Source of the DNA: Dudresnaya verticillata
Lineage: Eukaryota
NCBI GenBank assembly: GCA_977862235.1
Contig: OZ374557.1
Span: 4,092,001-4,156,000, forward strand
DNA: 64,000 bases
Reading direction: 5' to 3'
The stretch's first letter is position 1; each line of letters opens with the position of its first letter. Under the pieces are notes generated by a model. The model did no database searches. It was given only the letters and a program-made list of their open reading frames with translations, and was not told where the DNA came from. A program made the translations under genes and the position numbers. Below are positions 24,746 to 64,000 of this stretch, in pieces.

Positions 24746-24769
24746 GACATGCACGTATATGTCGAAGGT

Positions 24770-26012: not shown

Positions 26013-26069
26013 ATTGATCCATTGATCCCACCCGGCCCCCACCCCTCCCGCCATGGCCCCCCGCCATCG

Positions 26070-39973: not shown

Positions 39974-39984
39974 TCGGGAGACCA
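39974..39984 (-). promoter_or_regulatory. Gypsy primer binding site TGGTCTCCCGA
   Basis: TGG-starting motif 1 nt after the 5' LTR. The same motif occurs at 27320-27330. Confidence 0.8.
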
Positions 39985-39985
39985 C

Positions 39986-40672
39986 TGTAGTAGTATGGCG
40001 CGACGAGCCAGTAGCCCGCTAAACGACAAGGACAGCTGTCCCGTGCGTGCACATACCCTAACGAGGGTAGCTCAAAATGGGGAGTTGGTAGAGACTTGAG
40101 GGAAAAGGAAAAAGGCAAGCGTGCCTGAAAGAAAGGCAAAAAGGGCGGCGCCACCCTAACACTCGTAGAGTACAAAGCCGTACGAGGCTAAAGCTTCTAA
40201 AGCACCTGAAAGGGGGAGTACGGTGAGCCCGTGTAGACCAAAGAAAGGGTACAGACCCGAAACCCACCGTAGGGTTCTATTCAGCAGACCCCTGCTAGTC
40301 AGGGCGTAATAAATATGGCGAAGGCCGAAAGCGCCTTCGGCGCTATTCCTATTCTAAGCTATCGCAGTTAGCGTTAATAATTACAATGAGATAGTGAGCG
40401 GTCGTACTCCGCCCTGCGCACGTCAGGTGCTCATGACTCGGGTGCGCTCCTGCGCGTAAAGCCATGATAAATCAGCCAATCACCCAACCATCTCATTGGC
40501 GTCGTGCTGTTCCCAGCAATGCCATACAGAGTGGCCAGCAATGCATTGGGCCTTACAGCGCACCTGCACGTGCAGCGCATTACAGGCGCATGCCACGCGC
40601 AGTATTACCCGCGCATTACAGGCGCAGAACACGTGTACGTGCTTACAGCCCCTGGCGGCTCATTGTACCACA
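39986..40672 (-). repeat. Gypsy 5' LTR
   Basis: TG...CA ends; similar to 27332-28020 and 26070-26761. Confidence 0.95.
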
Positions 40673-41790
40673 GAGGCGCCAATCAAATGTCTCATCCTGG
40701 CGAAGACCAGCAATGACAGCGCTTTACAGGACATTGGCCCGTTAGGACTTGCAGCGTAGTATGCCCTATTGGCGCAACTCTCCATTGTGCCACACGGCTC
40801 CCCTCGTAAGACCGAGAGCCCCGCGAGATCTGAGCCGTTTCCAAATTGCGTTGGCCGTTGTGCCAAATCATGGGGGCCAGCCCCCATAGGGCGGAACGGC
40901 TGCGACGGAGACGCCGTCGGCAGGTTCCACACTCTGAGCCAGCGCTCGCGCGATTTTATATTGGCTCGCGCCCATGCCTGCCTGCCCGGCCAGTGGTCAT
41001 CAGCATCATCTCCCACGCACCCCGCGTCAGCGCTCTCAACGTTTGTCTGGCACACGCCGCGTCTTCCTTCCGCACTCCACATCGGGTGCGCGTCTCCTGC
41101 AATCTCTGCATCCCAACGCACGGCGCGCGTCTTCCGCTCCAACCTGTGTCTCTCGCTCAAGTCAAGACGCTACCGCGAGCCCGAGGTCGCATAAGGCGTA
41201 CATCCTCGCGTCCAGTGCGCGTCTTCCTCCACGGCCGACCATTCAGTCAAGTCAGCGACTTCAACGTGTCGCCACGTCGGCTATTCCTTCGCGTGCAAGT
41301 CGCCAGAAGAATACCTCCGGGCCAGGCCCGTCGCAGGATAGCTGCAGAAGAGCGTCAAGAACCGCGTACTCCTGGGTACCATGCCCGTGAATCCACACTT
41401 CCAGTATGGGCAGCCAGGGTCCTCCGAAAACGTGGCCCCGGTCGCCCTGGTGGCTGGAGGCGTTCCCGCGGACATAGCGGCCAGCCGCGATTGGCAGGTA
41501 GGTACAGACCTGAACCATGTGAGGCCCATGGAAGAGGGCAGTCGGGAGGAGATACGCCGCTTTGGCGGGAAGAGGGCGGAAGCCAAGGCTTGGAATACAC
41601 TGAAACGCATGCGTGTGAGCCAGCTCTCGATAACGACGCTGCGTGTCTCTACCTCGGGACTATTCCCCTTCGACTTAGCGCTCACACGTTGGCGCTGGGA
41701 GGTACCGTGGGTGGAGAACATGGCGAGCTTCATGCGCGATCGGAAGTACGTCCTGGACGAAATTGCCTTGTCCGATAAGTATGGCCTATA
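40673..41790 (-). mobile_element. 3' end remnant of a second, related Gypsy lineage (LTR/PPT junction at ~40794 and truncated antisense ORF at 41381-41780 on +)
   Basis: cattgtgccacacggctcccctcgtaagaccgagagccccgcga resembles the junction at 28010-28055. The ORF shares TDLNHV..SREEIRRFGGKRA and DLALTRWRWEVPW with 28781-28990. Confidence 0.7.
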
Positions 41791-41954
41791 TCTATTCTTT
41801 CGTGGAGGACTGTTCAGGAGTGCGCATTTTTAATTGAAATTCAAGTTGCCGTGGAGGACTGTTTAGCGATTGAGACAAGTCCTCCAGACGAGCAATCGGG
41901 ATTGTACACAAATCCTGAACATTCCTCCAGCCAATCCCGATTGGGATCCAGATT

Positions 41955-42195
41955 CTGAACAGTCCTCCAGGCTTGATCAGTCCTCCAGACTTGATCAGTC
42001 CTCCAGGCCTGAACAGTCCTCCAGTCCTGAACAGTCCTCCAGGCCTGAACAGTCCTCCAGTCCTGAACAGTCCTCCAGGCCTGAACAGTCCTCCAGGCCT
42101 GAACAGTCCTCCAGCCCTGATCAGTCCTCCAGCCCTGATCAGTCCTCCAGCCCTGATCAGTCCCCCAGCCCTGAGCGTCCTCCAGCCCTGAACAG
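41955..42195 (+). repeat. 18-bp minisatellite (ctgaacagtcctccaggc-like), ~13 copies
   Basis: Read directly from the sequence; two inverted units lie upstream at 41801-41818 and ~41850-41866. Confidence 0.95.
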
Positions 42196-42502
42196 TGTAG
42201 CGGAGAGCTGTTGGAAAACGCCTCAGCCTCTGAACTCCGAAGGTTTGGCAGCATGATCAGTCCTATGAACAATCTTGCAACTCGAGCAGTCTTCCGAAGC
42301 ATTGTCCAGCATTCACCGGGGTGTATCGAGCTTGGCGGGAGGTATCGAGGGCATGTCGCGCAACGAGATGTGCACGTCTTGAAAGTTTTCAACCAGGTCT
42401 CACCCAATCCGGATTCCAATCGGGATTCGATCACTGAACGGATCCAATCTATTGATCCGATCTGTGGCGTTTGCGGAAATCGTGAGATCAGTTTGCACTG
42501 GC

Positions 42503-42558
42503 TCAGATGAGACCAGTTGGCACCGGATCAGATGAGAACAGTTGGCACCGGATCAGAT
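42503..42558 (+). repeat. 25-bp tandem duplication cagatgag(a/c)...cagttggcaccggat
   Basis: Two adjacent near-identical copies. Confidence 0.85.
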
Positions 42559-43386
42559 CCGCATGACGGCCGCCGTTGATGCGCAACCGTAATTGCGCTC
42601 CCGCCAAAATGACGGCGCACAATTGTATTTAAGGAGCCCTGGCGTCGCAGTGACCCCGCGACGGCAGGACTCTCACTGAGCGAACGAATCTCCCTCACCC
42701 GAAACGGACGAGGAAGCAAGGTGAGTGCGGATCTCATTGCGTTCCTACAATTCGGTATCGAAGCGGACGACGTTATCCGGTTTCCATTGCGTGCTCACAG
42801 CGCTCGACGTAGGAGAAGTGACTAACCGCTCGAATTTCAACTGTTCCTTTGCGAGACGAAGCGATCGAAGAGCGTGTGCGGCGGGGATCAATCGACGAGC
42901 GGTAACGGTCAGCGAAAGCGCCGTTCGACATTGGATCAATTTCTTTCAATTACTTCCCGAGCGGAGGAATTGACGGTAAGTAGTTGACACATCTATGAGA
43001 TGTTCTTGGAAATTTGCAAGCTCTGCACATTTGCCTGGTCCTGATCGTAACTCGAGAGAGCGAAGTCGGTTTGGTTTCTAACCTGAATGCTTGTATGGAA
43101 TGCTTGTATGGACTTGTTGCGTGACTTAATAGTTGACGACAGAACGGTAAGCTATCCATTGTTGCGGGGGGTGAGAAGCTCTTGCAAAGATAAGACATGT
43201 TTTGGCGAAGATGTGCAAGAGTTGCAAATTTGCAAAAGCGTCTCATTTGATGCGAGGTGTCGAAACTCTGATGATTGCTAACCTTCAATATGAATCAACT
43301 GGTGTGCTCAATGTTTGTGTTGTTAGACCACTTGAATTTGTGAAAGATAGCATAGTCTTGAATCCCTGTTTCAACATTCCGTGGAG

Positions 43387-43950
43387 ATGAAGTTGCCGGA
43401 AACCGAGCACAATGAGGTTGGGAAGGCGAAGGCAAACTTGGCGAAGTTCAACCTGCGTTTGATTCCAGAAGTAGCCGAGCTGGGTTGCGATGCATGCAGG
43501 CATGCTGTGTTCCTCGCGGAACCTGACAACTTGCATCTTCTGAGGCATATAAGGAAGTGCCAGCCCAGCCTCTCCGTAAGTCGTGCACAATGTGTAGAAC
43601 TATGCAAGTCGTGGAGTTGCATTCGCCGAAATGTCACCAGGACATGTGATGACCACGAACATCAAGTCTACATCGGTACTGAAGCAATCAACAGTGGAAG
43701 TCGAGCGCTTGTGCGCAAGATCCCCTTCTTGACCGTCATGGATTGCTTTCCCTGCCCGTCTTGTAGGTTTTTGTCTGTATCCACGGATGGTTTGAGGAAG
43801 CATATGGATACCGAGCATGAAGGTTTGGGGAAGGCGGTGGGACTCGCAAAGTTGAAGCAGTTGAAGACGGTGAAGTGCCAGAAGCTCTTCAAGTCACGTG
43901 CTCCTGGGTATGCGTTTCCGGTGGGCGAAGGGGGAATCCGAGAGAGCTGA
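43387..43950 (+). CDS. DUF3505/OrsD-like zinc-finger region; probably the N-terminus of the downstream helicase protein, separated by a frameshift
   Basis: CDACRHAV...LLRHIRKC, FPCPSCRF...LRKHMDTEH and VKCQKLF resemble the N-termini of fungal telomere-linked RecQ helicases. It overlaps the next ORF in the +1 frame. Confidence 0.65.
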   Translation: MKLPETEHNEVGKAKANLAKFNLRLIPEVAELGCDACRHAVFLAEPDNLHLLRHIRKCQPSLSVSRAQCVELCKSWSCIRRNVTRTCDDHEHQVYIGTEAINSGSRALVRKIPFLTVMDCFPCPSCRFLSVSTDGLRKHMDTEHEGLGKAVGLAKLKQLKTVKCQKLFKSRAPGYAFPVGEGGIRES

Positions 43951-46900
43951 CGCATGCTCCGGCAGTGGAAATGTAGCTCGTCTTCTCCAAGAGCTCAGCC
44001 ATGTTCGGAAGGAGAGCGAGTGTGTGGAGAAGTCCGGGGGAGGTGAGGTTCGTAAGATGGGCGGGTTTGCTAGCGCCACAAGGCCAGATGTGAAGCTCGA
44101 GGAACTCAATCTGAGCATGGAGGAAGCCGTTGAGTTGGCCGGGGCGGCTGTACGCGGGAGTACTATGGATGGAATCGATGAGCAAGAGCTTGGAAAGTGG
44201 ACAACGAAAACGATAATTTCGTTGTTCCACACTGCACGGGAATATTACCGGAGGCCAAACATGGCGATTTCGAAGGTTATGATAGCCGTGCGGGCCCCTC
44301 CAGGAGCTAATCGGACTGAGAAGAACGAGTTTGCGTGGGTGCAGCGACAGTCGGAGAAGAGGTACGCGAGCTTATTGGCTCGTGTTGTGCTGACTCTTCT
44401 TCGCATGACCGTCAGAGCGCCGGGTGACAAGGGGTTGGTTGGAAATGAACAACTTATTGGTGCATGTAGGAGTGTGATGCAGGCATACCGAGGAGAGCAG
44501 GGATGTGACGTTGTTGAAAATTTTCAAGAGGTGCACAATGTGACGACACCCTCTGTCTTGGCAATGTACGGTGTGCTATCGGCGTTGTTCTATGAGAAGG
44601 CGAGTGTGGACCACGGAAGTCGCCACTGTGCTGCCCATGTATTGACGGCCTGTCTGGGTGTCAAGCGTGCAGGGAAGGGGAACACCTACTCCCAAGGGAA
44701 GGATATGTCTCCAATCCTCGCAGCTTTGGCGTATGCTTGTTCTCGCTGTGCCTTCATAGACATTTGTGGGACGGGGGAGAACGGGAGTTGCGATGAGAAG
44801 CTGACCGAGGTTGAGACCAAGCACGCAGCTGGCGGAAGTCTTGGAATACATGTCCTGCAAGCCATTTGCCTTCAGGCTAGAAGATTTAGGACTGAAGAGT
44901 ATGCCCGAAACACTTGGATGGCGTGCGACAATCCCGAGCACGAGGGATTGTACTGCGGATATGTGGAGGGACTTCACATCAGTCCGAAAGATATCGGAGG
45001 GAGCGTGTTGTGGATGCAATCCGAGGCTGTCAAGTTAATGTTCTCGCGGAATGGGATCATGAACGGAGTAAGACCACCGGCGAATTTGCAAGCTCGTCTT
45101 TCCGCGATGGTGGATAACACATCCAAGAAGGATGTGCATTACGGTATTGTTGTCGAAGAGAAGAATGCCGAAACCGTTGAAGAATGCCGAGGGTATGTTG
45201 CAGCTGCAGTGAAGGAGATGGGAAGTCTTGACGAGAAGGGGTTCAACAAACGGGCGAGGGAGATGCTGTCGATGTTGAGGAAGTTCAACGTTCTCGTGAT
45301 AGCTTGCATGCACCTTTCTGGTGGGAATGTATCTCGGGGGACAGAGCTTGGGCACTTGGCTGTTCGCAACACGAGCAATGGTCCGCGGGGAATCCAACTT
45401 CCTGGTGGTCCTCGAATTGCTCTCATCCCGTCCTACGATAAGACGAGGAACATGAAGAGGGGTAGGATGCGCGTCATTAGCAAGCACCCTGATGTGGTGA
45501 CGAGTAACCTGGTGAAGTTGATGATTGTGGTTGGAATGGAGCTTCGTCTGGCATTGTCACGTGTGCTGGGCGGGGGCAACTCAGGTTCTGGTCTCGAAGT
45601 GGATGAAGACGGGAAGTACAACTACTTGATGCCCACGGATAGACATCGCAACGGATGCTTGACGGAGGCAGCCAACATGTGGAGAAGATTTGGTTTGCCG
45701 GAAGAATACAAGGCGGAGACTCATCGACAATGGCTTGGAGGCTATGCCAACGACAAGGCCATGGAAGATGCGAATGTTGGATATGTGGCAGGGATACTGA
45801 ACCATGGCCAATCGGTAGGAGACGAGGAAGCTGGTACAAGGAACGGGAACCTTGGCAGTACAATACAGCTTCAGGGGGCGCACTCGGTACACATTGCCAA
45901 AAGTCTGTATGGAAGGTGTACTCCCAACATTGCTGGTGGAGGCAATGTCGATGACCGCAGTATGAAGCGATTTAAGGCTGCCTCCGACGCTTGGCTGGAG
46001 GATTGTGGCCTAGCCGACCGAAAGGATTGGAATTCTCTGGAGGTGGATCTTGTGATCAGAGAAGAAGAAGAGGTGGGGCCGGAAGAACCGAACGAAAATG
46101 GGAACGGGAGCTGCGCTCTGCGTGAAGGGCTTGATGGTGGTAGGCAACCTGATGTTCGGAGGAAGTTGTTGTTTCCAAAGTGTCCGCAAGACGAACCGTG
46201 CCGGCCAACGAAGAGGACACCAGAACCGGTGGGCGATGGGCGAAATGACGAGCAAGTTGGTTGCGAGGAGGGGGTTTTGATCTCGCTAGACGATGTGGAC
46301 GAAATTCAGCAATTTAGCCTGAGCAGCCAAGACCGGTTGGGGAATGTGGCATGTGGAGACGAAAGTATTGAGGAGTTAACCGGTTCCGCGTATCCAGATA
46401 ATGCTTCACAGCGCAGAGATGTTGAACACTGTGACGAGCCTGTCAGCCATGCGGCCACAGCGCACCGGCTTGACAACACGGGAAACCAAGGATGTGCAAC
46501 AGTTGGAAATTTCCAAGAGCTGCACAACTCTGATGGCGGGGTTTCCGTTGCGTACCCGCATCATGTCCCGCATTGTGACACGGTTGAAAATTTTGAAGAG
46601 TGTCACAAGTCTGGTTTCAACGATGAGCAGATCGCAACCCGGAGTACTGCAGCTTCCGCAGCTTCCGGATCTGAAACGCTCGCAAATCATCGAGAGTGTC
46701 TCAATGTAGAAGCTAGTGGGAAGCAATCGTCCCCGAACGACACCTCGCGATGTGCAGATGTTGAAAATTTTCAAGCTCTGCACAAGAATGAAACGAGCAG
46801 AGGATCCGGAAGGAAGCTCCAAAAGAAGGCGAGCGATGATGTCGAGGCAACCACCAACTCGGGATTGGAAGCGTCTGGGAAAGGCGACGAAGGTGGGAAG

Positions 46901-49510
46901 GCTGGGAAGAAGAGGGTCCGCTTCGCAGGAGAAGTTGAGGCCTACGACGTGGCAGGCAAACGTCAGAAGATGTCGTGTGGCAGTATGGCCCCGAGCGTGC
47001 GGCTTCGCGGAACCAGTTCTGGGACGAGGGCAACAACGCAGCAGTCTGTACGCGAAGGGCCGAGGGGGGAGTTGGTGAGGAATGGAACGGAAGGAGGAGG
47101 TTCGGAAGGGAAAAGGCCATGTCTACGAGGGGAGGGACGGTGTTCGTCAGGGAATGCTGAAAGGAGTGAAGAAAGGAGTGAACTACTAAGAAAATTCGCC
47201 ACTGCTGTGGAAGAAATGGAGAAGCGCAAGGAGGAATTCGAAACAGCAATCAGAAAGAGTGACGAAGAATTTACGCGGGCAAGGCAAGAGCGTGACAACT
47301 CGAGAGAGGGAGGCCGAAACGAATCTAGTGCACGTAGAAGGGGTGGGGATCCGAGAAGCAGCACTGTACTGGCGACAAACGGTGCAGCTGCATGGGATAT
47401 ACAGGAATGCCTTGCTCGTGCTGTTGGGGTTCCAAATGCGGAGTTTCGCTCCGAGAACCAGAGGCAGGCAATGGAACACGTGATCCGCCGGGAAAGCGAT
47501 GCTTTGGTAGTGTTGAGAACTGGGGGTGGCAAAACCGCAGTAATATTTGGACCGGCGTTGTGCGAGGAAGGTGTAACGATATTTATTTGCCCGTTACGGG
47601 CCTTGAGAGAGGAGATCAAGACGCGGTGTGACGCGATTAACCTGTCGGCTATGTCCTTTGATGATGTGGACTCGGTAGAAGATCTTCAAGGGTTTAACCA
47701 GGGCGTGATACTTACAGCTCCTGAGAACGTGTCATCGCGAAGGTACAAGGGGGCTCTTCGGGTGCTGCACAGTGAGGGCAAACTGATGAGGGTTGTTGTT
47801 GATGAGGCCCATCTCGTTGTCGTTGCAGCACACTACCGTGACTGTATGCTACGCATGCGACATGCACGTCCGTGCGGTGTGACGGTGCCTGTCGTTCTGA
47901 TGACGGCAACTTCTCCTCTGCACCTACAGCGCCGGATAATTGCTGCGAGTGGTGCTGATGTGGACGACACGGTGGTTATACGGGGCAGCTTGAGGCGGGA
48001 CAATTTGGGGTTTGCTGTCCAAATGCTGAAGGGTTCCAAGGCGGAGGAAGTATTTGGTCCAGTTGGAGACAGTGTCGTCGAAGGTGTACGGACGGCGATG
48101 TCGAGCCGCGGCGGTGGCAAAGTACTCGTATGTGTGTTGACGAAGTGCGATGCTGAGGAGATCCATGCAGCCCTGCGTGCGAGGCGGGAGCTGTCACGAG
48201 ACCGGAAGATCAGGATCACGCAGCATCACGGAGGTATGAGTGCAGAGGCGCGCGCCACGAGCGTGAACACATGGAGAACGAATGGAGCGGAAATGCTTAG
48301 TGTATGCGTGATGGTGGCAACGGAGGGCTTTGGGACTGGTATTGATGCACCTGATGTGGCCCAGACCATCATTGTTGGAAGCAGCCGGTCTCTTCTCGAG
48401 ATGTACCAAGTTTCTGGTCGTGTGGGCCGAGATGGGGGAAGCGGTGCCGTGTCCATTCTGCACCACCGCGATTTCGAAAATCAGGCGAATGTCCGGGACA
48501 CGGAGGCTGTGACGGCGCTGAAGCGGTTTCAACGATGGGCCGAGGACACGTCAAAGTGTCGGTGGGCGGAACTCGCCCGGTACCTTGGATGTACGGATGG
48601 GCCACTGGAGTGCTGGAGGCGGAGGGAGATGCGGCAAGATTCGACCGTACAGTTATGTGATGTGTGTACGAGGCTTGTTTCAGCGGGTGAAGAAGAGGAG
48701 CCCGTTATCTCATCTCTAGAGACTTTCTCTTCAGGCGAGATACCTGGATCCAGCGGACCGGGCCAATCACGTGACCGTGACATCCGGAGAGCGGATGAAA
48801 ACAGAATAGCCGTTGTTCGCCAGCCAACAGCGACTGTACGCAGGCTCGCTGCTGCCCACCACGGCTTTACCGCCATGCAGGTCTGTGGAGACAATTCAGC
48901 CAGTTCTGATATTGTATGCACTCCAGAGGACAGTGTAGTTGCAGCTGTTGGCACGTCGAGCGGTGTTGGCACGGCCGTAGCGGAGCTTCGAGATCTTGCG
49001 ATGAAGCTGGGTGTAATATGCCCGCCGTGTGCGGGGAGAGCTGATCCTGGCGATGAGCAGGCAATCAAAAGGTGCCAGGAAGGGCGGCATTCCAGGGTGT
49101 GCTATTATTGGCATTGCACGCGTTGCTTGGGGACAGGGCACAGTTCAAATCAATGCACTGTACGGCCCTGGAAACGACGTGGAGGGAAGTTTGTTGGTGG
49201 TTGTTCGGAGTGCTCCATCAGAACGTTTGGATCCGAAAAGACGCATGTTGGGAGTGGCAGTCCGAAAAGGGGCCAGAATGAATACGGCTCAGCAGAGCGC
49301 TGCCCATTCACCAAACCGGTTGAAATGGCCATGATGATGTGGGAGACGAAGCCGAGGAGGGCCGAGATGCTTGCCCACAAGGGGATGCAACGGTTCCGAA
49401 GGTGCAAGACGTCGAAGGCGTTTTGCGAAGAGCTAGTTTGGGACAGACCTGGACGGTGCCCGGGTATTCTTGAATTTTGTAGATACGCCGTGGAAGTACT
49501 GGGTCTGTAG
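43898..49510 (+). CDS. Tyrosine-recombinase-like domain fused to a RecQ-family SF2 helicase with C-terminal Cys/His clusters (telomere-linked-helicase-like)
   Basis: Helicase motifs FRSENQRQA, LRTGGGKT, PLRAL, VVDEAH, MTAT, HHGGM, VATEGFGTGID, YQVSGRVGRDG and an RQC-like CRW...CDVC. Recombinase-like motifs upstream: HLSGGNVSRGTEL, YDKT, ETHRQ, QGAHS..IAKSLYG. The helicase call is firm; the recombinase call is an inference. Confidence 0.85.
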   Translation: MLLGMRFRWAKGESERADACSGSGNVARLLQELSHVRKESECVEKSGGGEVRKMGGFASATRPDVKLEELNLSMEEAVELAGAAVRGSTMDGIDEQELGKWTTKTIISLFHTAREYYRRPNMAISKVMIAVRAPPGANRTEKNEFAWVQRQSEKRYASLLARVVLTLLRMTVRAPGDKGLVGNEQLIGACRSVMQAYRGEQGCDVVENFQEVHNVTTPSVLAMYGVLSALFYEKASVDHGSRHCAAHVLTACLGVKRAGKGNTYSQGKDMSPILAALAYACSRCAFIDICGTGENGSCDEKLTEVETKHAAGGSLGIHVLQAICLQARRFRTEEYARNTWMACDNPEHEGLYCGYVEGLHISPKDIGGSVLWMQSEAVKLMFSRNGIMNGVRPPANLQARLSAMVDNTSKKDVHYGIVVEEKNAETVEECRGYVAAAVKEMGSLDEKGFNKRAREMLSMLRKFNVLVIACMHLSGGNVSRGTELGHLAVRNTSNGPRGIQLPGGPRIALIPSYDKTRNMKRGRMRVISKHPDVVTSNLVKLMIVVGMELRLALSRVLGGGNSGSGLEVDEDGKYNYLMPTDRHRNGCLTEAANMWRRFGLPEEYKAETHRQWLGGYANDKAMEDANVGYVAGILNHGQSVGDEEAGTRNGNLGSTIQLQGAHSVHIAKSLYGRCTPNIAGGGNVDDRSMKRFKAASDAWLEDCGLADRKDWNSLEVDLVIREEEEVGPEEPNENGNGSCALREGLDGGRQPDVRRKLLFPKCPQDEPCRPTKRTPEPVGDGRNDEQVGCEEGVLISLDDVDEIQQFSLSSQDRLGNVACGDESIEELTGSAYPDNASQRRDVEHCDEPVSHAATAHRLDNTGNQGCATVGNFQELHNSDGGVSVAYPHHVPHCDTVENFEECHKSGFNDEQIATRSTAASAASGSETLANHRECLNVEASGKQSSPNDTSRCADVENFQALHKNETSRGSGRKLQKKASDDVEATTNSGLEASGKGDEGGKAGKKRVRFAGEVEAYDVAGKRQKMSCGSMAPSVRLRGTSSGTRATTQQSVREGPRGELVRNGTEGGGSEGKRPCLRGEGRCSSGNAERSEERSELLRKFATAVEEMEKRKEEFETAIRKSDEEFTRARQERDNSREGGRNESSARRRGGDPRSSTVLATNGAAAWDIQECLARAVGVPNAEFRSENQRQAMEHVIRRESDALVVLRTGGGKTAVIFGPALCEEGVTIFICPLRALREEIKTRCDAINLSAMSFDDVDSVEDLQGFNQGVILTAPENVSSRRYKGALRVLHSEGKLMRVVVDEAHLVVVAAHYRDCMLRMRHARPCGVTVPVVLMTATSPLHLQRRIIAASGADVDDTVVIRGSLRRDNLGFAVQMLKGSKAEEVFGPVGDSVVEGVRTAMSSRGGGKVLVCVLTKCDAEEIHAALRARRELSRDRKIRITQHHGGMSAEARATSVNTWRTNGAEMLSVCVMVATEGFGTGIDAPDVAQTIIVGSSRSLLEMYQVSGRVGRDGGSGAVSILHHRDFENQANVRDTEAVTALKRFQRWAEDTSKCRWAELARYLGCTDGPLECWRRREMRQDSTVQLCDVCTRLVSAGEEEEPVISSLETFSSGEIPGSSGPGQSRDRDIRRADENRIAVVRQPTATVRRLAAAHHGFTAMQVCGDNSASSDIVCTPEDSVVAAVGTSSGVGTAVAELRDLAMKLGVICPPCAGRADPGDEQAIKRCQEGRHSRVCYYWHCTRCLGTGHSSNQCTVRPWKRRGGKFVGGCSECSIRTFGSEKTHVGSGSPKRGQNEYGSAERCPFTKPVEMAMMMWETKPRRAEMLAHKGMQRFRRCKTSKAFCEELVWDRPGRCPGILEFCRYAVEVLGL

Positions 49511-49570
49511 TAGAGTAATAGTGCAACGGGCGACATAAAGTGAATTTGAACACACGTATTGTGTATAGAC

Positions 49571-50275
49571 TGTGAGACTTTTGAAAATTTCCGAGAGCTT
49601 CACAGAACGGGCGGTACAGTATGAATGAAACGCGACTGCCTGTGAAGCTCTTGAAAATTTACAACAGTCGCACTGAAACTGTACATCTTGTAGCGGCGTC
49701 CGTTGCTTCCAGACGACTCTTGAAAATTTCCGACATCGTCAGATGCAGACAATTGTGTTTTTGCACGAAGGGTGAGACTCGTAAACATTTCCGAGAGTTT
49801 CCCGCAACCACGGAAGGCGGTTTAGAACAGACGGGTTGTGCAGCTCTTGCAGATTTACAAGAGCTGCACAATGTAAATGTTGTAGGGATTTCGATTGCTT
49901 TTGTGCAACTCTGGAAAACTTCCAACAGCTTCACGTACAGACAATGGTAGTGCTGCACGAAGGATGAGACTCTTGAAAAATCCGGAGGACCACGGAATGC
50001 GGTTGAGAACAGACGGTTTGTGCAGCTCTTGCAAATTTACAAGAGCTGCACAGTAACCCGTATATGTTGTAATGATGTCGATTGTGCAACCCTTGAAAAT
50101 TTCCAACAGCTGCACATAAACACAATGGTAGTGCTGCACGAAGAATGAGACTCTTGAAAAATCCGGTGGACCACGGAATGCGGTTGAGAACAGACGGTTT
50201 GTGCAGCTCTTGCAAATTTACAAGAGCTGCACAGTAACCCGTATATGTTGCAGTGATGTCGATTGCTTTTGTGCA
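49571..50275 (+). repeat. Array of 34-bp palindromic motifs downstream of the helicase gene, partly organised as ~181-bp tandem units
   Basis: Clear motifs start at 49571, 49641, 49837, 49902, 50019, 50083 and 50200, with degenerate ones at ~49710, 49771, 49963 and 50144. Perfect 13-bp arms at 49837, 50019 and 50200. Confidence 0.93.
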
Positions 50276-50906
50276 ACACGTACTATCGGAATGAAATGCT
50301 TCGACTTGTTGTGGTGGGTGGGGTGTATGTGCATCGCAGGGAGTACCGAAGGGAGCGGGAAGTTGTCCTTGACTGTAGGGCAGCGGTAGCGGGTGTGGCG
50401 CGTGCAGAACAATGAAATGCACAGGGAAGAAAATCCTCGACGCGGGGTGGCGGCTTGTGTAGCATGCGGTGCGTTCCGGCGAGTGTAAGCTGCTTGGGCA
50501 CGGCGGTAGTCGGTCTCGAACGCGAGGCCATGGGGCGGGCGGAGGCAACGGACCCACACCATGTTTGGTGGGACAGTTGATGCGGAAGGCGGGAAGAAAT
50601 TCCGACGGTGGTGGTGTTGCAGCTGGAGTTGTGTGAGGTGGAGAGTGTGCCAGCTGCGCCGGTGGAGCGGGCAGCGGAAACCCCGCAACGACCCGGCTGG
50701 CGGGTGTGCGGGTTTTGGAAGTGCGACGGAGAGGCGCGAGCACAGCAGCCACGCGGTGGGCGCGCACGTTGATGTGGGCGAGGGTATGGGAGGGCGGCGG
50801 CAGTGAAGCTGAGGGGAAGGCCCGAGAACCGAGAAATATTGTCACGGGCGCGGCAGTAGGGCAGGGCAGAGGTTTTGTGCCTGCAACGCGGCGGCGACGA
50901 GGATGC

Positions 50907-51256
50907 GAAGGGCGAGGGCAGGGCGAAGAGGTTGCAGAAGCAGTGGTACGGGAGTGAGGGGAGGGCTTGTTGAGACCGCGGAGGGGAGGGCGTTGCCGGA
51001 AGCTTGCGGCGTGATCGAGGGTGTGGCGAGGAGGAAATGGCGCGGGGTGCGCAACGGGTAGGCACGCAACGCCTAGAATTCTGAGGGCGAGGGCAGGGCG
51101 AAGAGGTTGCAGAAGCGATAGTACGGGAGTGAGGGGAGGGCTTGTTGAGAACGCGGAGGGGAGGGCGTTGCCGCAAGGTTGCGGCGTGATCGCGTCGGTG
51201 TGGCGAGGAGGAAATGGCGCGGGGCGCGCAACGGGTAGGTACGCAACGCCTAGAAT
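50907..51256 (+). repeat. G-rich tandem duplication, period ~177 bp, 2 copies
   Basis: agggcgagggcagggcgaagaggttgcagaagc...cgcaacgcctagaat at ~50907 and ~51084. Confidence 0.9.
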
Positions 51257-54200
51257 GCGCCATGCGCACAGTATGACGCGGGAGTGGGAGCATGGTGGCG
51301 TATGTCGAGGTACTAGAGATCCCCGGGTGAGACGGTTAGAAAAACCCAAAATAATTATAGAAATGGGGACGTGCGGGAAAAGTCGAAACTGACACTGACA
51401 GACACTGACAGAGCCATTTCTGTGGTCTTGCGTAGCTTAGTCGGTGGGCACACAGAAAGTAACATTATTTCTGAACTCCCCGGCGAGCGGCATGGTCGCT
51501 TGGCGAATAGAAGAATAACTTCCATTCCGTTGTGACGAAACCGGGGTAGATGTCGACTTTATTTGCTTTAGGACGTAGTTGCTGGATTGCCGAACTCGAA
51601 TGTCTCCACAGCATCAGCGTTCATGTTCCTCACAACGTTTCAGTAGTGGTTGGATGGTTGGCTCTGTTACTCTCATTTAAATTGTGGTCGATTTCGGTGG
51701 TAGTTGATGCTTGTAGCGGTTGTTCCTGCTCCGTTCCATTACTGTAGAAGTACAATATGATGGTTAGAAACTGGACATACAACTGCCATAGTGAATTTAT
51801 ACAAGCCTGCTTCTGGTTCCGCTTCAGCTGTACTCAAACAAAGTACCATAATATCATTCTTATCGCTTTAGTCAAGTCCTCCCCCAGGGGAGCTTTATTT
51901 TTCTGTCCTTCCCTTCGCGGCATCTTTTCCTCGAATGGAGGTTGTTCATTCTTTTCCTCCCCGCTTCGACTGCCATTCTTTAAATAGAGAGCCGTTGAAC
52001 ATCCACTCCATAGCTGAGACCCAGTATTGGCAACTGGATGCAGGTCGCGCCCGCGAAAGGAGGTCGCGGCGCCAGCATGCCCACGCACCCGAGGCATGAA
52101 GCGGCTTGAAGCTGAGACGTTTGCCTATGTTCTGTTCTCTGAAGCCGTTTGTATTTTTAATTTGTATATGTTACGTTGTACTAGTTTGAGAATTCGCTCT
52201 CCAGCACTTCGAACGCGGTAGACAGGGGAAGGCTGAGACGCGTGGGTAGAGAAAAACGGAGATCCACAACAACATCGAGAGCTATAGCAAAAGATTGATG
52301 GCCACTCATTCAACCTGCTTCTATATAATTTTACGTTTGTTGTCTGCCCGGAAGGGGTTTTGTAAACAAGCTACTGCTACTGACTCACGTTAACACCCGG
52401 ATTCTTTAATAAGCGCGCTCTCAATGTGCGAGCAATGAGGTTTAGCTACAGCAAGTTGTTGTTGGTGCACGAATGCCACGGCCTACTCCTGTCCCGACGC
52501 AGTTCCCGCGCTAACAGAATTGAAGATCGCAGACACAGACATCAAAGACTTGACAATTATCTTGTAATGTACGCAACGCGCTTTCCACTACTTATACAGG
52601 ACGTTCGTGACACCGCTTCGCAGTGGACTACGATTTGCTTCTCACTGTACTTAATCCCCAGCTGCGGCGATGACTGAACGATGTCCAGTGTGTAGCGCCC
52701 CTCGACGACCAGTCGCAGGCGCAGACGCGTGAAACCCCGGTCTGTCCCGAAGGTGTATGATGGGGACGCGCCGATGCAAGGACAGTGGGTGGGCAGTTCT
52801 GGGTCTGTGCTGCACCACTGTCACATTGCCAATGTACCACAACAGTAGTAACATGGTTCTCGTCGCTTGACAAGATGCTTCAATAACGAGCAAGCTGCCG
52901 TAGCTGCCGCGCATATTCTCATCTGCCGCTATCGTCGCGGATGCGGCGGACGGCGCTCGCGGAGGGCGTGCAGTGTAGCGCACGCATCCACGACGATATG
53001 CTTTTGTTTGCTCACCAATTTGAGTACCGTGTGTCGATCTCGTTCTCCTCTTCGCCGCGGTGCACATATGGGTGTCCACGTTTCCCCGCGCACGAATCGT
53101 TCCGTATGTGGTTCTTTCTACGCGCATTGTGTGCGGAGCGGGTACGAAGGTACGGCGCGAGCGCAGGAGGCGGGGGTGACAGTGATCATTAGACGGTGGC
53201 GCGTTTGACGACGCAGCGGACAGACATCCGTGTTCAATTTGTGACAGACGGGCAGGGACGCAAGCGGTATGTATCAATTCCGGGCTCGGCGCCGGGTGGG
53301 TTGTACAGCATTCCATAATACGGGGCGCACACGTTCCTCTCCCTTGCGTCATTGGAGGCTAAGCACGTTGCAACGGAGTGCCAGAGTCGTATAACAATAA
53401 GCGCAGGTGGCGTCGTGATAGCGGTTGCAGAACGCGTCCCGTAGCTATCCATCATGATATAGCTTGCAACTTTTGTAACTTACCCAATGTAGTTGTTCTA
53501 AGTCACCCTACTCGCCACAATCTTTAAACGTCGGAAATGTTAGGGCAAAGCCACTATCCTTCAGAGAAAACAAGCTTTTATGGCATTGTAAAACATTGTT
53601 TGAACAAACAGAAGTGGCGTTACCCATTGCATGCAAACTGAAGCAAGACTGACATGCCTTTCGGCGGCAAGTAAAACTGCTATGAGATGCTCTCACCAGT
53701 GAACCTGGATATGTAAACCACCGCGAGATATGTAAACCCCAAATGCCACCTTGGACTCTCCTACAATAGCCACACGCGTGCCCCAAAAGTTGTTGCAAAT
53801 TTCTACCCCGAGTACAACAAGCACCTTCGTAGCCTGATGACACTCTCGCTGTAGCAAGACAGCACGTCCACGAACAGCGTCGTGCAAATCAAGAAATGCA
53901 ACCCGACTGACGGCGTTTCAGGTGGCGCAGCAACGAAGGACACCGCGTTTGTACCCATAGTCTGCTATCATCGAAGTGCCCGGATTGTCCCTTCACGAGT
54001 TGCAAAGCTCCGTGCTAAGCTAGGCCTCCCGGACGCGTCGCGGAGACCTCACGCTGCCAACGGGAATTGAAGCATACCCTCCTCAACCAGCTGCAGAAAG
54101 TAACAAGAGGTAGCAAGGCCACAGCGGTCTAGGCCGCGGCGCATCCTCCCACCGCATTCCAGCACCGCCCAGACGCAGGGCACCAAACTACACTACGAAA

Positions 54201-59151: not shown

Positions 59152-59510
59152 TGTGCAGTCGCTGCAAATTTTGAGGTCTTGCACAACCCGTACCTTCTTG
59201 GCACTGTGCAGTCGTTGGAAATTTTCAAGCGTTGCTCACTGCGTACCCTCTAGGTACTGTGCAGTCGTCGCAAATTTTCAAACGCTGCACAACTCTTGAT
59301 ACTGTGCAGTCGTCGCAAATTTTCAAACGCTGCACAAATCTTGATACCGTGCAACCGTTGGAAATTTTCAAGCGTTGCACACAACGTACCTTCTAGGTAC
59401 TGTGCAGTCGTTCCAAATTTTCAAACGCTGCACAACTCTTGGCACTGTGCAGTCGTTGCAAATTTTCAAGAGGTGCACAACTTTTGATACTGTTTAATCG
59501 CAAATTTGAA
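59152..59510 (+). repeat. Regular array of seven 34-bp palindromic motifs (plus one degenerate) with 19- or 11-bp linkers
   Basis: Starts at 59152, 59205, 59258, 59303, 59348, 59401 and 59446 (periods 53, 53, 45, 45, 53, 45); consensus tgtgcagtcgttg-caaatttt-caaNNgctgcaca. Confidence 0.95.
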
Positions 59511-59537
59511 AAAGGTAGCTCTACTGACAGTGAAGCG

Positions 59538-62500
59538 ATGGTGAGCCCGAAAAGAGGTGCAGCAAAGGCTCGGAGAGGGCGTAATGCGACCAGAGGTCGA
59601 AAGAAGGGTGCCGGTCGTGGAGACAACGGTAGCACGGCTGATATGGAGGTTAATCAGCCAACTGGTGATGTGAATGATGGGGCAAGGCCTCAACCGAGTG
59701 CGGGTAGAGCAGAAGCAGTGCCAAGTGGGCCCCCTGTACACTCAGAGACAGGGAAACCGACTCCTACATCGTCTCCTGTTGTGAAAGGAAGCGGCGTTCC
59801 CTCCAGCCTCACCGGGCAAGGCAGCGAAGGTGGTAGCAAGACGGGTGCCGCTCGATCAGGTCCCGCTACTAAGAGTACTGGCGATGATGTTGCAGCTATC
59901 AACTCCAGCGGCAAGAAAACGGGAACCCCGAGCGAATTGACTCCGTCGGAGCCCGCGAAGGAAGTCTCAGACCCCCCTGTCGACGAAATGGCAGCACGTG
60001 AGACACCGGAAAATCCCACATCTGCACCGGGTGATTCGTCCCTGAAAACGAGGCAAAAGCGGTTGGCTACGGAAGTTGCAACTGCGGAAAAGGATGCTGC
60101 AACTGCGAAAAAGAAGGGCACGGACTGTCAACGAGAGGACCAAAGTGCAAAGGAAGCGACGCCTCCGCCTCACTCTGCTGTCCCCAACGATCCTGCACTA
60201 CCCCCGGCTGCTGGCGTGAACGGTGGAGCCCAGAAGAATACCCCTCAATCGGACGCAATTGGACGCCAGGCGGACACCCCTGCAGAAGTTGAGGATGAGA
60301 GTGATTCGCCTTGTAAGCCAGACGAGAACGCCGATTCCGAAGCCGGAGTGGAATCGGACGAGATCAGTGCTGCACCCTCGTCGCGTCGCAGCACGAGGAT
60401 AAACCATGCACAGGCTCGAAAGGGGAAGGCAAAACGAACCCGTGGGGAGGCTTTGTCACTCGGGGGTACAGGAGGGCGGAAGGAAGGTGTTTCTCGAGGC
60501 GTGCGTCCACGAAAGAGCACTGGAATACGTTCAGCGCCTGTCCCTGTTGACAATCGCACGCCGGTTCGAGGTGGGGGTTATTTGCCAGGGATGACCGGAT
60601 TGCGCCGCCCCGCTCCGCTCTATACCGGAATTGATGTATCGGATGGAATGGTTACATTGCCGAGACCCCGTGATGCAGACGGAAAAGTGAGTGCCCCGAA
60701 GCTACCACATCCGTCTATTCTACTGGAATTTCTGGACACTTGGAGGGTTGTGCAGAAGCCAAACTCGGAGATGACTGCCACATATCACCAGCACATTGGA
60801 CACAGCGTGTACCCAAACGACGGTGATGGTGTTCTGTGGCCTGTGGCAACCCCTGTGTCCAACATCCGCATCGCAACCCATAGCAACATCCGATCGGTAC
60901 AGCAATCGCTTCTGAGAGGCGGTGATGGTATCCCGAGATGGTTTGAGGGCCTGGGCCAATCCACCCTGATGATTAGAGCAGATGCCCTTGGGGTACATAT
61001 TCCCGATATGTACGTGGAGCGTATTCAAATTGCGGAAGAACCGAGCCCCGGGCAGGATTTTACGGGCCCCGTTTATTTGTACCGGTATCGCAAGGGCTGC
61101 CGCCCGATTCTGCCAGAAAAGTGGCTCGATACGAGTGGCTCTGACCCGAAGCTTCCGGCCAACGCTGTACTTGGGATTAACGATGGAAATGTCCGTCTTT
61201 CAGCGGCAGCTCTCCTCGGTGTTCAGAACATGAAATCCCGTGTCTCTGTCATGGTCATACCGCAGCAGCAACTTGAGGGTCTTAGGCGCAACCGCGAAAA
61301 TATCTTGGAAGCGGCGGCGTTCATTGAAGGGGTCATAACGGGAGTTGCCAACGTGCTCAACGAGGCGACAGCGCATATCGGGACCACCACACCTGTTCAG
61401 ATGGCGTTGGCCTGTGCGCTTCTACGTACCGGGACAGTCAGGCAACTGCCGTCAAGAGTTCATATTCCATCAACAGCAAACGAGGAGGAGAGTCGCTTCG
61501 ATGGGCTGCAGCAATCGATTGTAGCGAAAATCGCGGAAGAACGTAATGAGGAGCAAAATGCGCATGGCCCGGGAGCATCAGACGAGGGGATTGGCGCTAC
61601 TACATCGACACGGGATGTGGGCAGGGCAGGTGAAGAAGGCACTGGGTCGTCTAGGATCGACGAGTGTGAAGCTGTTGAAAATTTACGAGACTTGCACATT
61701 GGTAATCCTGCGACCCGTTCTACCAACTCTGCCAGCCAGCCGACAGCAGTCACTGTGAAGACAGGGGAAACGGGCCCGGAAGAGCATGGGGGAGCCTGTT
61801 TACCGCGGCATCCTGGCGGTCTGACTAAGAGTGCTGGACCTTGTGGCCCGATCAGGCCATGGAGGAAAGAGTTTTGTAAGGAGTACAATAGTTGCTTGGG
61901 GACGCTGATAGAACCGAGCCCTCAGACATACCTCCGAGGTGGGACAGTGGCTGGGGAGCGGTATGGTGTTGTGGCCCGTTCGGCAATCGGGGAGTCTGCG
62001 CCGAACAACCAGAAGAAGGGGAAGAGGAAGAGAACCGGAAGTGATGCCACTCCTGAAACGTCACAGCCCCGAAGTCGCCGGAGAGTAGAGCCGGAGGGGA
62101 AAGCTTCAACGCCGAGTGAATCCCTGGGGCGCAATATAGCAGAACACCCGGGACAGGAAATGTCCGGATTGGAAGGGGAAGGGAAGAAGCAAGACCGAGA
62201 ATCTTTCCTGAACCTCGCGAAGGAAGCGACAGACTTTCTGTTTATCTGCGGATGCGTGGAGATCAGACGCAACCGCATCGTGCATGTCTGTCAAGCTTGT
62301 AAGTCGGATAGCGAACTGATACGCGATGACCTGGCCAGCACTTGGGCCTTGGAGGTACTGGACAAGCGAGATGCTTCTGTGAGCAGCGGTGGATCTCCGA
62401 TTGTATACGCGCTTCCGTATGACGCGGAAAAGTACCGTTACATGAAGGTACTGTTCAACAAGAGTTTAACAACCCTTTTCGGGCCCATGACCCAACCGTC

Positions 62501-63083
62501 AGGGAGACGCGTGCTTGTACGTGGAAGTGCCTACAACTACAGCCTGGAGGAGGTATCGCTGTACAACATTACTGAGGGGGAACGCAGGTTGATAATAAGC
62601 GAATTCCACGGCGTGGCAATGCTGGCAGCAGTGAACCGTCTTGATCGATACGAGGCGGAATGCTTGAGCGATAGAACGGAGAAGAAATTGATCGGGGGGT
62701 ACAACGTTGCGAAGACAAGCACCAGCAGAACTAAGTTCCTTGTTGATGAGCAGTCGGAGAAGGTATACACACGGTCTTCAGGATATGGTGGCCTGTCTTC
62801 AGTCTTGAGAGAGGCCGGGATGCTCGGGGCACGTGCTGCAACGGCTGCAACCAAGCTATGCAACGGGCTTCTAGGTCTTCGCTCTGTGAACTGCATACTA
62901 CTCGCAGGTGATTGCAAGGCCAAGCTGCCACGAACAACCTCGGAGACCTTTCAATGGTTTACAGTCAACTCATGGCATCGGAAACCGACTCAGGAGCAGT
63001 TGGAAAACCGTACGTACGACATGAGCAGGCCACACGATTGTATTCGTCGCGTCTTGACGGAGAGGATGGCTTTGAAAAAATGA
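59538..63083 (+). CDS. Large hypothetical protein (~1180 aa): disordered basic N-terminus and two apparently globular regions
   Basis: Uninterrupted 3.5-kb ORF, first ATG at 59538 just after the motif array. No family recognised. One 34-bp motif lies in frame at 61665. Confidence 0.75.
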   Translation: MVSPKRGAAKARRGRNATRGRKKGAGRGDNGSTADMEVNQPTGDVNDGARPQPSAGRAEAVPSGPPVHSETGKPTPTSSPVVKGSGVPSSLTGQGSEGGSKTGAARSGPATKSTGDDVAAINSSGKKTGTPSELTPSEPAKEVSDPPVDEMAARETPENPTSAPGDSSLKTRQKRLATEVATAEKDAATAKKKGTDCQREDQSAKEATPPPHSAVPNDPALPPAAGVNGGAQKNTPQSDAIGRQADTPAEVEDESDSPCKPDENADSEAGVESDEISAAPSSRRSTRINHAQARKGKAKRTRGEALSLGGTGGRKEGVSRGVRPRKSTGIRSAPVPVDNRTPVRGGGYLPGMTGLRRPAPLYTGIDVSDGMVTLPRPRDADGKVSAPKLPHPSILLEFLDTWRVVQKPNSEMTATYHQHIGHSVYPNDGDGVLWPVATPVSNIRIATHSNIRSVQQSLLRGGDGIPRWFEGLGQSTLMIRADALGVHIPDMYVERIQIAEEPSPGQDFTGPVYLYRYRKGCRPILPEKWLDTSGSDPKLPANAVLGINDGNVRLSAAALLGVQNMKSRVSVMVIPQQQLEGLRRNRENILEAAAFIEGVITGVANVLNEATAHIGTTTPVQMALACALLRTGTVRQLPSRVHIPSTANEEESRFDGLQQSIVAKIAEERNEEQNAHGPGASDEGIGATTSTRDVGRAGEEGTGSSRIDECEAVENLRDLHIGNPATRSTNSASQPTAVTVKTGETGPEEHGGACLPRHPGGLTKSAGPCGPIRPWRKEFCKEYNSCLGTLIEPSPQTYLRGGTVAGERYGVVARSAIGESAPNNQKKGKRKRTGSDATPETSQPRSRRRVEPEGKASTPSESLGRNIAEHPGQEMSGLEGEGKKQDRESFLNLAKEATDFLFICGCVEIRRNRIVHVCQACKSDSELIRDDLASTWALEVLDKRDASVSSGGSPIVYALPYDAEKYRYMKVLFNKSLTTLFGPMTQPSGRRVLVRGSAYNYSLEEVSLYNITEGERRLIISEFHGVAMLAAVNRLDRYEAECLSDRTEKKLIGGYNVAKTSTSRTKFLVDEQSEKVYTRSSGYGGLSSVLREAGMLGARAATAATKLCNGLLGLRSVNCILLAGDCKAKLPRTTSETFQWFTVNSWHRKPTQEQLENRTYDMSRPHDCIRRVLTERMALKK

Positions 63084-63152
63084 AACGCAGGAGTGAAGAC
63101 ATGTGCTGCATAATTGCAAACGCAGGAGTGAAGACATGTGCTGCATAATTGC
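63083..63152 (+). repeat. 35-bp tandem duplication aaacgcaggagtgaagacatgtgctgcataattgc
   Basis: Two adjacent identical copies. Confidence 0.9.
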
Positions 63153-64000
63153 AAGGCTCTTCCGGACCTGCAAAAGATACTGCGCGACTTGTTATTCACT
63201 GAGAAGTACGATGTGGACTTGTGGGCGGGGTCTCCGGAAAGCGGGATGCGCACGGAACCAACGGACAGGGCGCGTCTAGGTGGGTCCAAATTTGACTTCG
63301 ACGTGTACCGGGCAATAGAAAGCGCTGCCGGACGATATGAGTTCTTCGAAGATGCATGGGTAAACCTGGGGATACCCAGCAGGATAGCCCGATGCCTGTA
63401 CTCCTTCAAGGTGGCGAATGGTGGGATGGGGGATTCAATTCAGATGAATATAATCAGCATTCGCTCTACGGAAATTGACCCGGAGATGAAACCATGCATG
63501 CTGGAATTACTGGACACGGACATGACCGAGGATGGGCTCGAAGTGGACGTGCCCCTGGCGAACAGTCTCCCTGTTGGCCAGGCCACGAGACCTGGAGACG
63601 CGTCGGCGCAGGAGCTGACGTCACGAAAAGCTGTTAGGCGTCGTAAATCAAGAGACGGTGGTGGTGGAGGTACTGGAGGTGGCGGGTCGGGCGGTGGAAG
63701 GTCGGGCCGCGAAGTGTCGGGCCGTGGTGGATCCCGAAACGCCCCCTGGCGCAAGACCAAAAGCAACACTCTCGGAAGCGTCGTGATGGGGAGGACGAAG
63801 GAGATTCTGGGAATGTCTAAAGAGAAGCAGGAGGAGGCCATTGCCATGGTCGTGACCTGCAGCATGGAGGTTTGCCACGACCGGCCCGAACTCGCGGACC
63901 CAAGTATACCTTTGGAGGAGCGATTGGAGCAGGTCAAGGAATTATTCAGGAGACCAGTAGACGTGGAGAGTATAGCGTCGGACCCACCCAATTCGGACGA
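63132..64000 (+). CDS. Open reading frame running off the right edge, in the same frame as 59538-63083; hypothetical protein
   Basis: Manual translation shows no stop for ~289 codons (HNCKALPDLQKILRDLLF...GGGGSGGG...VESIASDPPNSD). It is absent from the ORF track because it has no stop in the window. Confidence 0.7.

Follow-up and report, generated by a model that had tools for sequence, protein, structure and literature searches.

A telomere-linked-helicase-type gene with a predicted tyrosine recombinase, a putative mobilizing enzyme among loxP-shaped palindromes in an alga

A gene that joins zinc fingers, a predicted tyrosine recombinase, and a RecQ-type helicase was identified at positions 43387 to 49510 of a 64,000-nucleotide stretch of the genome of the alga Dudresnaya verticillata (assembly GCA_977862235.1, contig OZ374557.1, positions 4,092,001 to 4,156,000, forward strand; the whole stretch is referred to here as the window). 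The gene has the layout of the telomere-linked helicases (TLHs) and lies among imperfect palindromes of 34 bp that are shaped like loxP. On balance, we favor the reading that this TLH-type fusion is the putative mobilizing enzyme of a DNA element whose dyad-symmetric sites it binds. The putative element probably spans at least 19 kb, is likely to be mobile, and likely represents a kind of mobile DNA not described in the literature searched. No paper linking TLHs with a tyrosine recombinase was found in that search, which did not extend to subscription journals, Repbase, or Dfam, any of which could hold an earlier description.

RESULTS

Organization of the gene

A preliminary description, made from the sequence alone, treated 43387 to 49510 as one fusion. 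This interval comprises two overlapping open reading frames (ORFs), with the following features:

43387..43950, + strand: ORF-a, 187 amino acids; N-terminal OrsD/DUF3505-like domain and two C2H2-type zinc fingers (Pfam, homologue N termini)
43874..49510, + strand: ORF-b, 1,878 stop-free codons; recombinase, linker, RecQ, and Cys/His-rich tail
43925..43946, + strand: break between ORF-a and ORF-b; a one-base frameshift is likeliest, the alternative being a 58-nt intron at 43908-43965
44186..44902, + strand: predicted core-binding (DNA-clamp) domain of the recombinase (structural alignment of the 658-amino-acid model)
44924..44956, + strand: conserved C-x4-H-x4-C motif opening the catalytic half (C 74/78, H 76/81, C 75/80)
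45263..46021, + strand: predicted tyrosine-recombinase catalytic domain (R 45335, K 45440, R 45725, H 45881, Y 45908)
46031..47400, + strand: unconserved linker with three in-frame palindromes (homologue comparison)
47453..48436, + strand: RecQ-type superfamily 2 helicase core (Pfam DEAD and Helicase_C)
48557..48667, + strand: RecQ-type zinc-binding cysteines (motif; homologue P0002)
49019..49500, + strand: C-terminal Cys/His-rich region with a C-x2-C-x4-H-x4-C knuckle, kept in homologues

ORF-a aligns with the N termini of homologues and matches C2H2 families in Pfam, as well as OrsD (DUF3505) at an E value of 4e-4, below the Pfam cut-off. With a hidden Markov model built on 24 homologous N termini, the frameshift reading of the break between the two ORFs scored 121 bits versus 101 bits for the 58-nt intron, which shows GT..CTGAC..CAG; the intron is therefore disfavored. 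The copy in the window is probably frameshifted through decay, or misassembled, and may be inactive.

The RecQ motif set noted previously is borne out. ORF-b carries TGGGKT, DEAH, MTAT, and QVSGRVGR motifs along with a C-R..C..C-D-x-C zinc site, and its core matches the Pfam DEAD (E = 2e-13) and Helicase_C (E = 7e-12) families; in homologue P0002, RecQ_Zn_bind was also detected (E = 4e-4). The solved structures closest to the family profile are those of RECQ5, BLM, RECQ1, RecQ, and WRN. The motif-II loop and motif VI of ORF-b depart from the canonical RecQ consensus. The linker has no counterpart in homologues, with no matching stretch from residue ~720 of ORF-b to residue ~1140-1190, and the C-x4-H-x4-C motif that opens the catalytic half may bind a metal.

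Catalytic residues in a family of homologues

The region at 44057-46030 has no Pfam match, and a word-indexed search with this middle part of the gene returned nothing. Relatives came only from HMMER, which, given the product of 44057-46030, found 98 among 1.84 billion representatives, mostly 21-45% identical; none were found in the viral contigs or prokaryote genomes searched. The region was aligned locally with 85 of the 98 phmmer matches, 13 being omitted as too short or not covering it. The five residues that the preliminary description had placed in tyrosine-recombinase order are all encoded at the bases listed above and rank among the most conserved columns (R 80/82, K 80/80, R 67/73, H 69/71, Y 68/70), and 63 of the 68 homologues that span all five positions retain the complete R-K-R-H-Y set. 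The spacing of 9 between the H and the Y is that of XerD, lambda Int, and Cre. The His of the H-x-x-R motif that characterizes Cre/Xer/Int-type enzymes is absent, with Glu in its place in the window protein, Ser in 30/68 homologues, and His in only 1/68. The family is very probably catalytically active. At the level of sequence profiles, no Pfam recombinase family (Crypton, Starship, or protelomerase) was detected in 17 family proteins at E values up to 10, and no PHROG recombinase family among 9 test proteins.

The TLH-type layout is common to the long homologues, which keep the full order of OrsD/C2H2, unannotated middle, DEAD plus Helicase_C, and Cys-rich tail. Both helicase domains were found in 27 of the 30 homologues scanned (the other three are shorter fragments), and the N-terminal C2H2/OrsD domains exceeded the Pfam cut-off in 12 of the 30. 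The nearest Atlas clusters are ascomycete proteins and an OrsD cluster. The only relative bearing a name is a Leucocoprinus protein (P0099), encoded in the interior of a 561-kb contig; its model continues into SPT5 KOW domains and is probably a merged gene prediction.

In a rapidly built tree of 84 rows (support by SH-aLRT only, midpoint root, most rows without a taxon), the window protein falls in a clade of 38 rows, separate from the sole named fungal protein and from the intron-bearing loci. Thus, of the proposed fungal architecture in an algal genome, the TLH-type layout stands, whereas a recent transfer from fungi is unsupported by this tree and was overstated. A third lineage, on a very long branch, is formed by the loci L014 and L015, which have 66-67% GC and an intact R-K-R-H-Y set.

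The view that the gene is not a housekeeping RecQ also holds up, given that paralogues in relatives are under purifying selection and private repeats surround the gene. The loci L003, L005, L008, and L011 contain paralogues that are 72-93% alike, with dN/dS of 0.03-0.06 over 190 codons of the catalytic exon. At L001, the first gene is followed by a second, decayed recombinase region (6740-7335, 77-84% alike).

The predicted recombinase fold

Two alignment-guided models, one of the 658 amino acids encoded at 44057-46030 (predicted local distance difference test [pLDDT] score, 83.4) and one of the catalytic domain (81.5), were compared with known structures using VIA-align. For the catalytic model, set against 48,161 chains, the first 24 rows all belonged to the recombinase/topoisomerase IB superfamily; QRICH1, vaccinia topoisomerase, and Ndc10 came after these, and the first unrelated row had a Z score of 3.6. 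The match to Xer (4a8e) reached Z 9.1 (root mean square deviation [rmsd], 3.7; 150 aligned residues; 9.1-9.5 across models), compared with 7.6 for Cre, 7.4 for IntI, 6.9 for topoisomerase IB (6.7-7.7 across models), and 5.5 for Flp. The protelomerases TelA and TelK, at 3.3-3.5, fell far below Xer and Cre.

The 658-amino-acid model spans both domains of DNA-bound Cre (residues 21-327; 268 aligned, rmsd 5.0), XerH (10-346; 285, 5.0), and IntI (14-304; 253, 4.2). These alignments start at model residues 44-91, whereas those with topoisomerases start only at residue 283. The model accordingly includes a predicted core-binding domain N-terminal to the catalytic domain, as in Cre/Xer/Int-type recombinases. 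When the ends of the aligned ranges are extrapolated, rather than superposed, Tyr254 of the model falls on Cre 324, lambda 342, human topoisomerase I 723, and variola 274, the catalytic tyrosines of those enzymes. Because predicted fold, residue order, and conservation agree, ORF-b almost certainly contains a tyrosine-recombinase domain, as the preliminary description had proposed.

Comparison of the 658-amino-acid model with BFVD provided two leads: a full-length match to an uncharacterized protein of a Feldmannia species virus (B5LWN9; 587 columns, E = 1.2e-3, template modeling [TM] score 0.36) and a phage integrase (E = 0.04).

Palindromes of 34 bp in the window

The palindromes, which like the frameshift are additions to the preliminary description, form an island that includes a second gene, ORF2, linked to it solely by the shared palindromes:

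41955..42558: tandem repeats of 18 bp (13.5 copies) and 25 bp (3 copies) at the left edge of the island
42369..43245: three palindromes upstream of the gene (42369, 42996, 43212)
44504..44537: one palindrome, in frame, in a length-variable loop of ORF-b (51 amino acids versus a median of 39 in 65 homologues)
46493..46784: three in-frame palindromes in the ORF-b linker (46493, 46574, 46751)
49571..50233: seven palindromes directly 3' of the stop codon, partly inside a 181-bp tandem repeat
59152..59479: seven palindromes in 45/53-bp tandem units immediately upstream of ORF2
59538..63083, + strand: ORF2, 1,181 amino acids
61665..61698: one palindrome, in frame within ORF2

All 22 copies, counted at 10 or fewer mismatches, lie within 42369-61698; neither 1-42368 nor any of 20 shuffles contained one. 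No dyad family was detected in six 7-kb control pieces of 1-42000, no match to the pattern in viral sequences, and no Rfam match in a scan of 40-64 kb. The outer four bases, positions 11-13, and a central AAATTT (19/22) are conserved, positions 14 and 21 vary, and the whole can be read as 13-8-13 or 14-6-14. This geometry fits the layout given for recombinase sites in PMC3212892, "two 11-13-bp inverted repeats around 6-8 bp." The half-sites vary independently (p = 0.52), the pattern to be expected if a protein recognizes the site and not if it forms a hairpin, and the bases flanking the central hexamer are not symmetric. The five coding copies, four in ORF-b and one in ORF2, share one reading frame. 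We lean toward the view that these candidate sites are bound by the recombinase, and the tandem repeats at 41955-42558 are a candidate end of the element. A hairpin reading of the attC kind was rejected, there being neither arm covariation nor a G-T versus A-C bias (18 versus 16).

Palindromes around the genes of relatives

Fifteen loci of relatives, taken from metagenome contigs and including two near-identical pairs (L006/L009 and L014/L015), were inspected for comparable repeats. A dispersed dyad family is present in eight of them (L003, L004, L006, L007, L008, L009, L011, and L012), with 6-15 copies each versus at most 2 in shuffles. Four families could be delineated in addition to that of the window (23, 9, 17, and 16 copies); they surround genes whose products are 22-33% like the search protein and are unrelated in sequence to one another and to the window palindrome. 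Short GT-AG introns, the upstream region, and the linker between recombinase and helicase all hold dyads, as do exons in some cases. One orthologous intron carries a dyad in 7 of 9 loci, drawn from three different families. The dyad habit thus appears, from the sequences compared, at both ends of the tree, in the window and in the fungal-like group.

Among the five families, the central hexamer is self-complementary in 19/22, 19/23, 7/9, 12/17, and 11/16 copies. Whole-arm covariation exceeds that in shuffles in one family only, where the outer hexamer pair is complementary in 22/23 copies versus 13.1 in within-locus shuffles (p = 2e-4). In two fungal families, the sense strand leans toward A-C (uncorrected p = 0.03 for each).

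Several loci show further peculiarities. Only L003 (3313-3370), L008 (550-605), and L011 (3170-3226) have an intron that separates the catalytic R from the K and contains the dyad of that lineage, which suggests that intron gain was tied to site gain. At L006 (2900-3500 and 6230-6440), there are runs of tiny exon-intron units with one palindrome per intron, the right arm of which resembles a branch point. Upstream arrays of tandem or direct repeats are present at L010 (6868-7233), L013 (201-1410), and L012 (1812-3130), the first two of these loci having no dyad family.

A possible mechanism and its alternatives

If the TLH-type fusion mobilizes a dyad-bound element, two recombinase subunits would clamp each 13-8-13 dyad, and the tyrosine would cut at the terminal dyad clusters and hold the DNA as a 3'-phosphotyrosine, the established chemistry of this superfamily. 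Strand exchange between sites would free the element, or reinsert it, as a circle, and the same exchange would generate the tandem site arrays. The fused RecQ would load at the cut and unwind 3' to 5' from the tyrosine-held end, driving strand transfer or branch migration into imperfect target sites; RecQ is a 3'-to-5' motor (10.1101/2024.02.27.582403). Such coupling of the helicase to the recombinase cut is put forward tentatively, and we rate it somewhat below an even chance. The sites inside the gene would probably be for binding only (loading or autoregulation) because free recombination there would destroy the gene.

A number of observations weigh against this scheme, beginning with the fold. 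The best Z of ~9 is modest, barely above what the VIA tool calls common, and the tyrosine helix was modeled at pLDDT <50, so that the active-site geometry rests on a low-confidence part. The structural comparison with Cre, XerD, and Flp suggested in the preliminary description gave a divided answer. VIA-align favored Xer as described above, whereas Foldseek returned nothing significant for the catalytic model, the best match being Cre at E = 0.037 (TM ~0.3), although almost every one of the 20 best-ranked matches was Cre; for the 658-amino-acid model against the PDB, it likewise returned nothing significant, listing unrelated helical proteins. These results, together with the lack of a sequence-level match to any recombinase family, are what could be expected if the residues fell into this order by chance in a helical domain of another kind. 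The near-invariance of exactly these residues at ~25% identity, and the ranking of only the recombinase/topoisomerase IB superfamily first by two independent models, make this very improbable.

Other difficulties concern the sites. No dyad lies between 50.3 and 59.1 kb, so that the element may not be one continuous unit, and since dyads also flank ORF2, at a distance of nine kb from the gene, the binder may be another protein. The nearly symmetric centers of the palindromes would give recombination no direction. Among the relatives, L005 has only 2+1 copies, L001, L002, and L010 have no dyad family, and L013-L015 show only tandem or low-complexity matches. L001 and L002, dyad-free in the little flank covered, are the loci nearest to the window protein, and all dyad-positive loci belong to one related fungal-like group near P0099. 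Furthermore, two dyad families coexist in L003, L008, L011, and L005.

That coexistence in four loci, the expansion of sites as tandem repeats, and their presence in promoters, introns, tolerant loops, and the 3' flanks of two genes would also suit a protein that binds the palindromes for expression or antisilencing, be it the zinc-finger part or ORF2, while the recombinase moves the element at other ends. In plant VANDAL elements, family-specific motifs control expression or counter silencing. We consider this arrangement unlikely, although it deserves attention: the length and layout of the dyads match recombinase sites, the model has a Cre-like two-domain clamp, C2H2 fingers need no dyads, and ORF2 is without a match in the 15 loci.

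The self-complementary central hexamers found in most copies of all five families, and the complementary outer hexamer pair of one, bring to mind protelomerases. Here, a 6-base staggered cut would be sealed into hairpin ends; opening of these by the helicase and host replication would amplify the element or cap ends. Protelomerases and topoisomerase IB also lack the His of H-x-x-R, which fits this scheme. So does the telomere linkage of the fungal members (10.1101/2024.02.27.582403, PMC1635262). We regard it as quite improbable, given the low TelA/TelK scores relative to Xer, the absence of whole-arm covariation from four of the five families, and the asymmetric flanks of the hexamer in the window; moreover, hairpin ends within the gene would break it, and no telomere arrays are present in the window.

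Equally doubtful is a domesticated host enzyme, that is, a topoisomerase IB-like swivel or junction resolvase joined to RecQ for telomere or repeat upkeep, with no mobility of its own. Topoisomerase IB shares the five-residue set and is among the structural matches, and TLH genes of Schizosaccharomyces pombe are reported to be induced upon telomerase loss and to aid recovery (10.1101/2024.02.27.582403). Conversely, the core-binding domain aligns with recombinases and not with topoisomerases, the paralogues are divergent, the sites are private and fast changing, the window copy is frameshifted and the tandem copy at L001 decayed, and Magnaporthe oryzae chromosome ends without TLH are stable according to PMC1635262.

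Surroundings of the island

ORF2 has no Pfam or PHROG match, none in viral contigs, and none in the 15 loci of relatives; its Atlas matches, including DUF3723 and ParB_N clusters, are below threshold (0.75-0.77). An exact 35-bp duplication (63083-63154) lies at its end, and it is followed by one more frame:

63132..64000, + strand: ORF3, running off the end of the window; no family by Pfam or PHROG

No DDE or HUH transposase was found by Pfam in the ORFs of the palindrome island, and no tandem telomere-type arrays were found in the 64-kb window, which ends 14.5 kb past the gene. A 175-bp GC-rich duplication (50895-51256) follows the palindrome cluster, and a 163-codon frame of no known family (41342-41833, + strand) ends right before the 18-bp tandem array.

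The remainder of the window contains host and retrotransposon sequences. A host gene encoding a GCN1-like HEAT-repeat protein (10295-18496, + strand) consists of one uninterrupted 8.2-kb frame, which fits an intron-poor alga but proves nothing. It is followed by a copia-type element (18905-26012) with identical 125-bp long terminal repeats (LTRs) and overlapping gag and pol frames, which carries an extra antisense frame of 294 codons and no known family (24773-25654) before its right LTR. A decayed gypsy-type element (27279-40690, minus strand), with LTRs of ~760 bp that are 91-100% alike, is adjoined by an inverted LTR copy (26068-26761).

Comparison with known systems

The closest resemblance is to the TLHs (S. 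pombe Tlh, M. oryzae TLH1, Fusarium oxysporum TLHcr, and those of Ustilago maydis and Monosiga), a likeness by description rather than by alignment. It extends to the C2H2/OrsD N terminus, albeit weak in the window (E = 4e-4), a conserved block before the RecQ core, that core itself, C-terminal zinc motifs, flanking tandem repeats, and broken copies. The "TLH domain" is described, in 10.1101/2024.02.27.582403, as ~250 amino acids upstream of the helicase with no assigned function; its size and position are compatible with the catalytic domain in the window, again by description. In M. oryzae, HAR-D of the TLH regions contains a conserved imperfect palindrome of 23 bp (PMC1635262). The gene in the window differs in that its middle block has a predicted recombinase fold, not stated in the portions of the TLH literature examined, in its long uninterrupted frame, in the absence of telomere repeats from the window, and in its clade, which is apart from the named fungal protein. 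The window thus adds a member of a non-fungal clade with a loxP-shaped candidate site, along with a pattern of site turnover across lineages, and the combination of predicted fold, conserved residues, and candidate site makes the function of the TLH domain directly testable. If this reading is right, helicase repeats near telomeres would mobilize themselves instead of serving the host in telomere upkeep, and the group would reach well outside fungi. Its members would then offer a series of natural recombinase-site pairs from eukaryotes, differing in specificity and equipped with a fused motor.

With Cryptons (Kojima and Jurka 2011, PMC3212892), the putative element shares a eukaryotic setting, a tyrosine recombinase, a circle model, and the lack of obvious terminal inverted repeats; Cryptons are multicopy and bear terminal direct repeats of 4-6 bp. 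Unlike Cryptons, the putative element has a fused RecQ (the word helicase is absent from that paper), its recombinase lacks the His of R-H-R-Y, and it contains many internal dyads. The Crypton-derived Pfam profiles GCR1_C, DUF3504, and NDC10 matched neither ORF-b nor any of the 17 family proteins (E up to 10). Based on these comparisons, the Crypton-like identity proposed in the preliminary description appears to be a likeness and not membership. Starships such as Enterprise (PMC8092012) are similarly large and carry their recombinase gene close to one edge, followed by uncharacterized genes, but no DUF3435 match was found in ORF-b or the 17 proteins, and in the window the zinc fingers precede the recombinase and the helicase is fused behind it.

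Cre/loxP, Flp/FRT, and XerCD/dif share with the putative system the predicted two-domain clamp and the 34-bp 13-8-13 dyad. The window protein differs by a helical insertion in its catalytic half and by the fused motor, and its sites by a near-symmetric center and by their number, ~20 degenerate sites rather than two. Protelomerases possess R-K-R-H-Y without the first His and have symmetric site centers, as does the window family; TelK and TelA nevertheless match the model weakly, and no protelomerase match was found by Pfam in the family.

Helitron RepHel, AcademH, and KolobokH likewise pair a transposase with a helicase, using HUH or DDE chemistry; Academ pairs its transposase with a RecQ (PMC3627910 and PMC10799480). 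Given its predicted domains, the window protein can also be set against Helitrons with respect to polarity. Helitrons combine a 5' linkage with a 5'-to-3' motor, which a 3'-phosphotyrosine and a 3'-to-5' motor would mirror. A bolder proposal, which we think unlikely but worth stating, is that TLH-type genes are the transposases of an unrecognized, eukaryote-wide superfamily of DNA elements with this mirrored polarity. The recombinase would nick element-specific dyads and stay linked to the 3' end, from which the RecQ motor fused to it would peel the held strand 3' to 5' for circularization or transfer. Each lineage would coevolve its own dyad, retained in introns, loops, and flanks, and the fungal telomere-linked copies would be a telomere-targeting branch.

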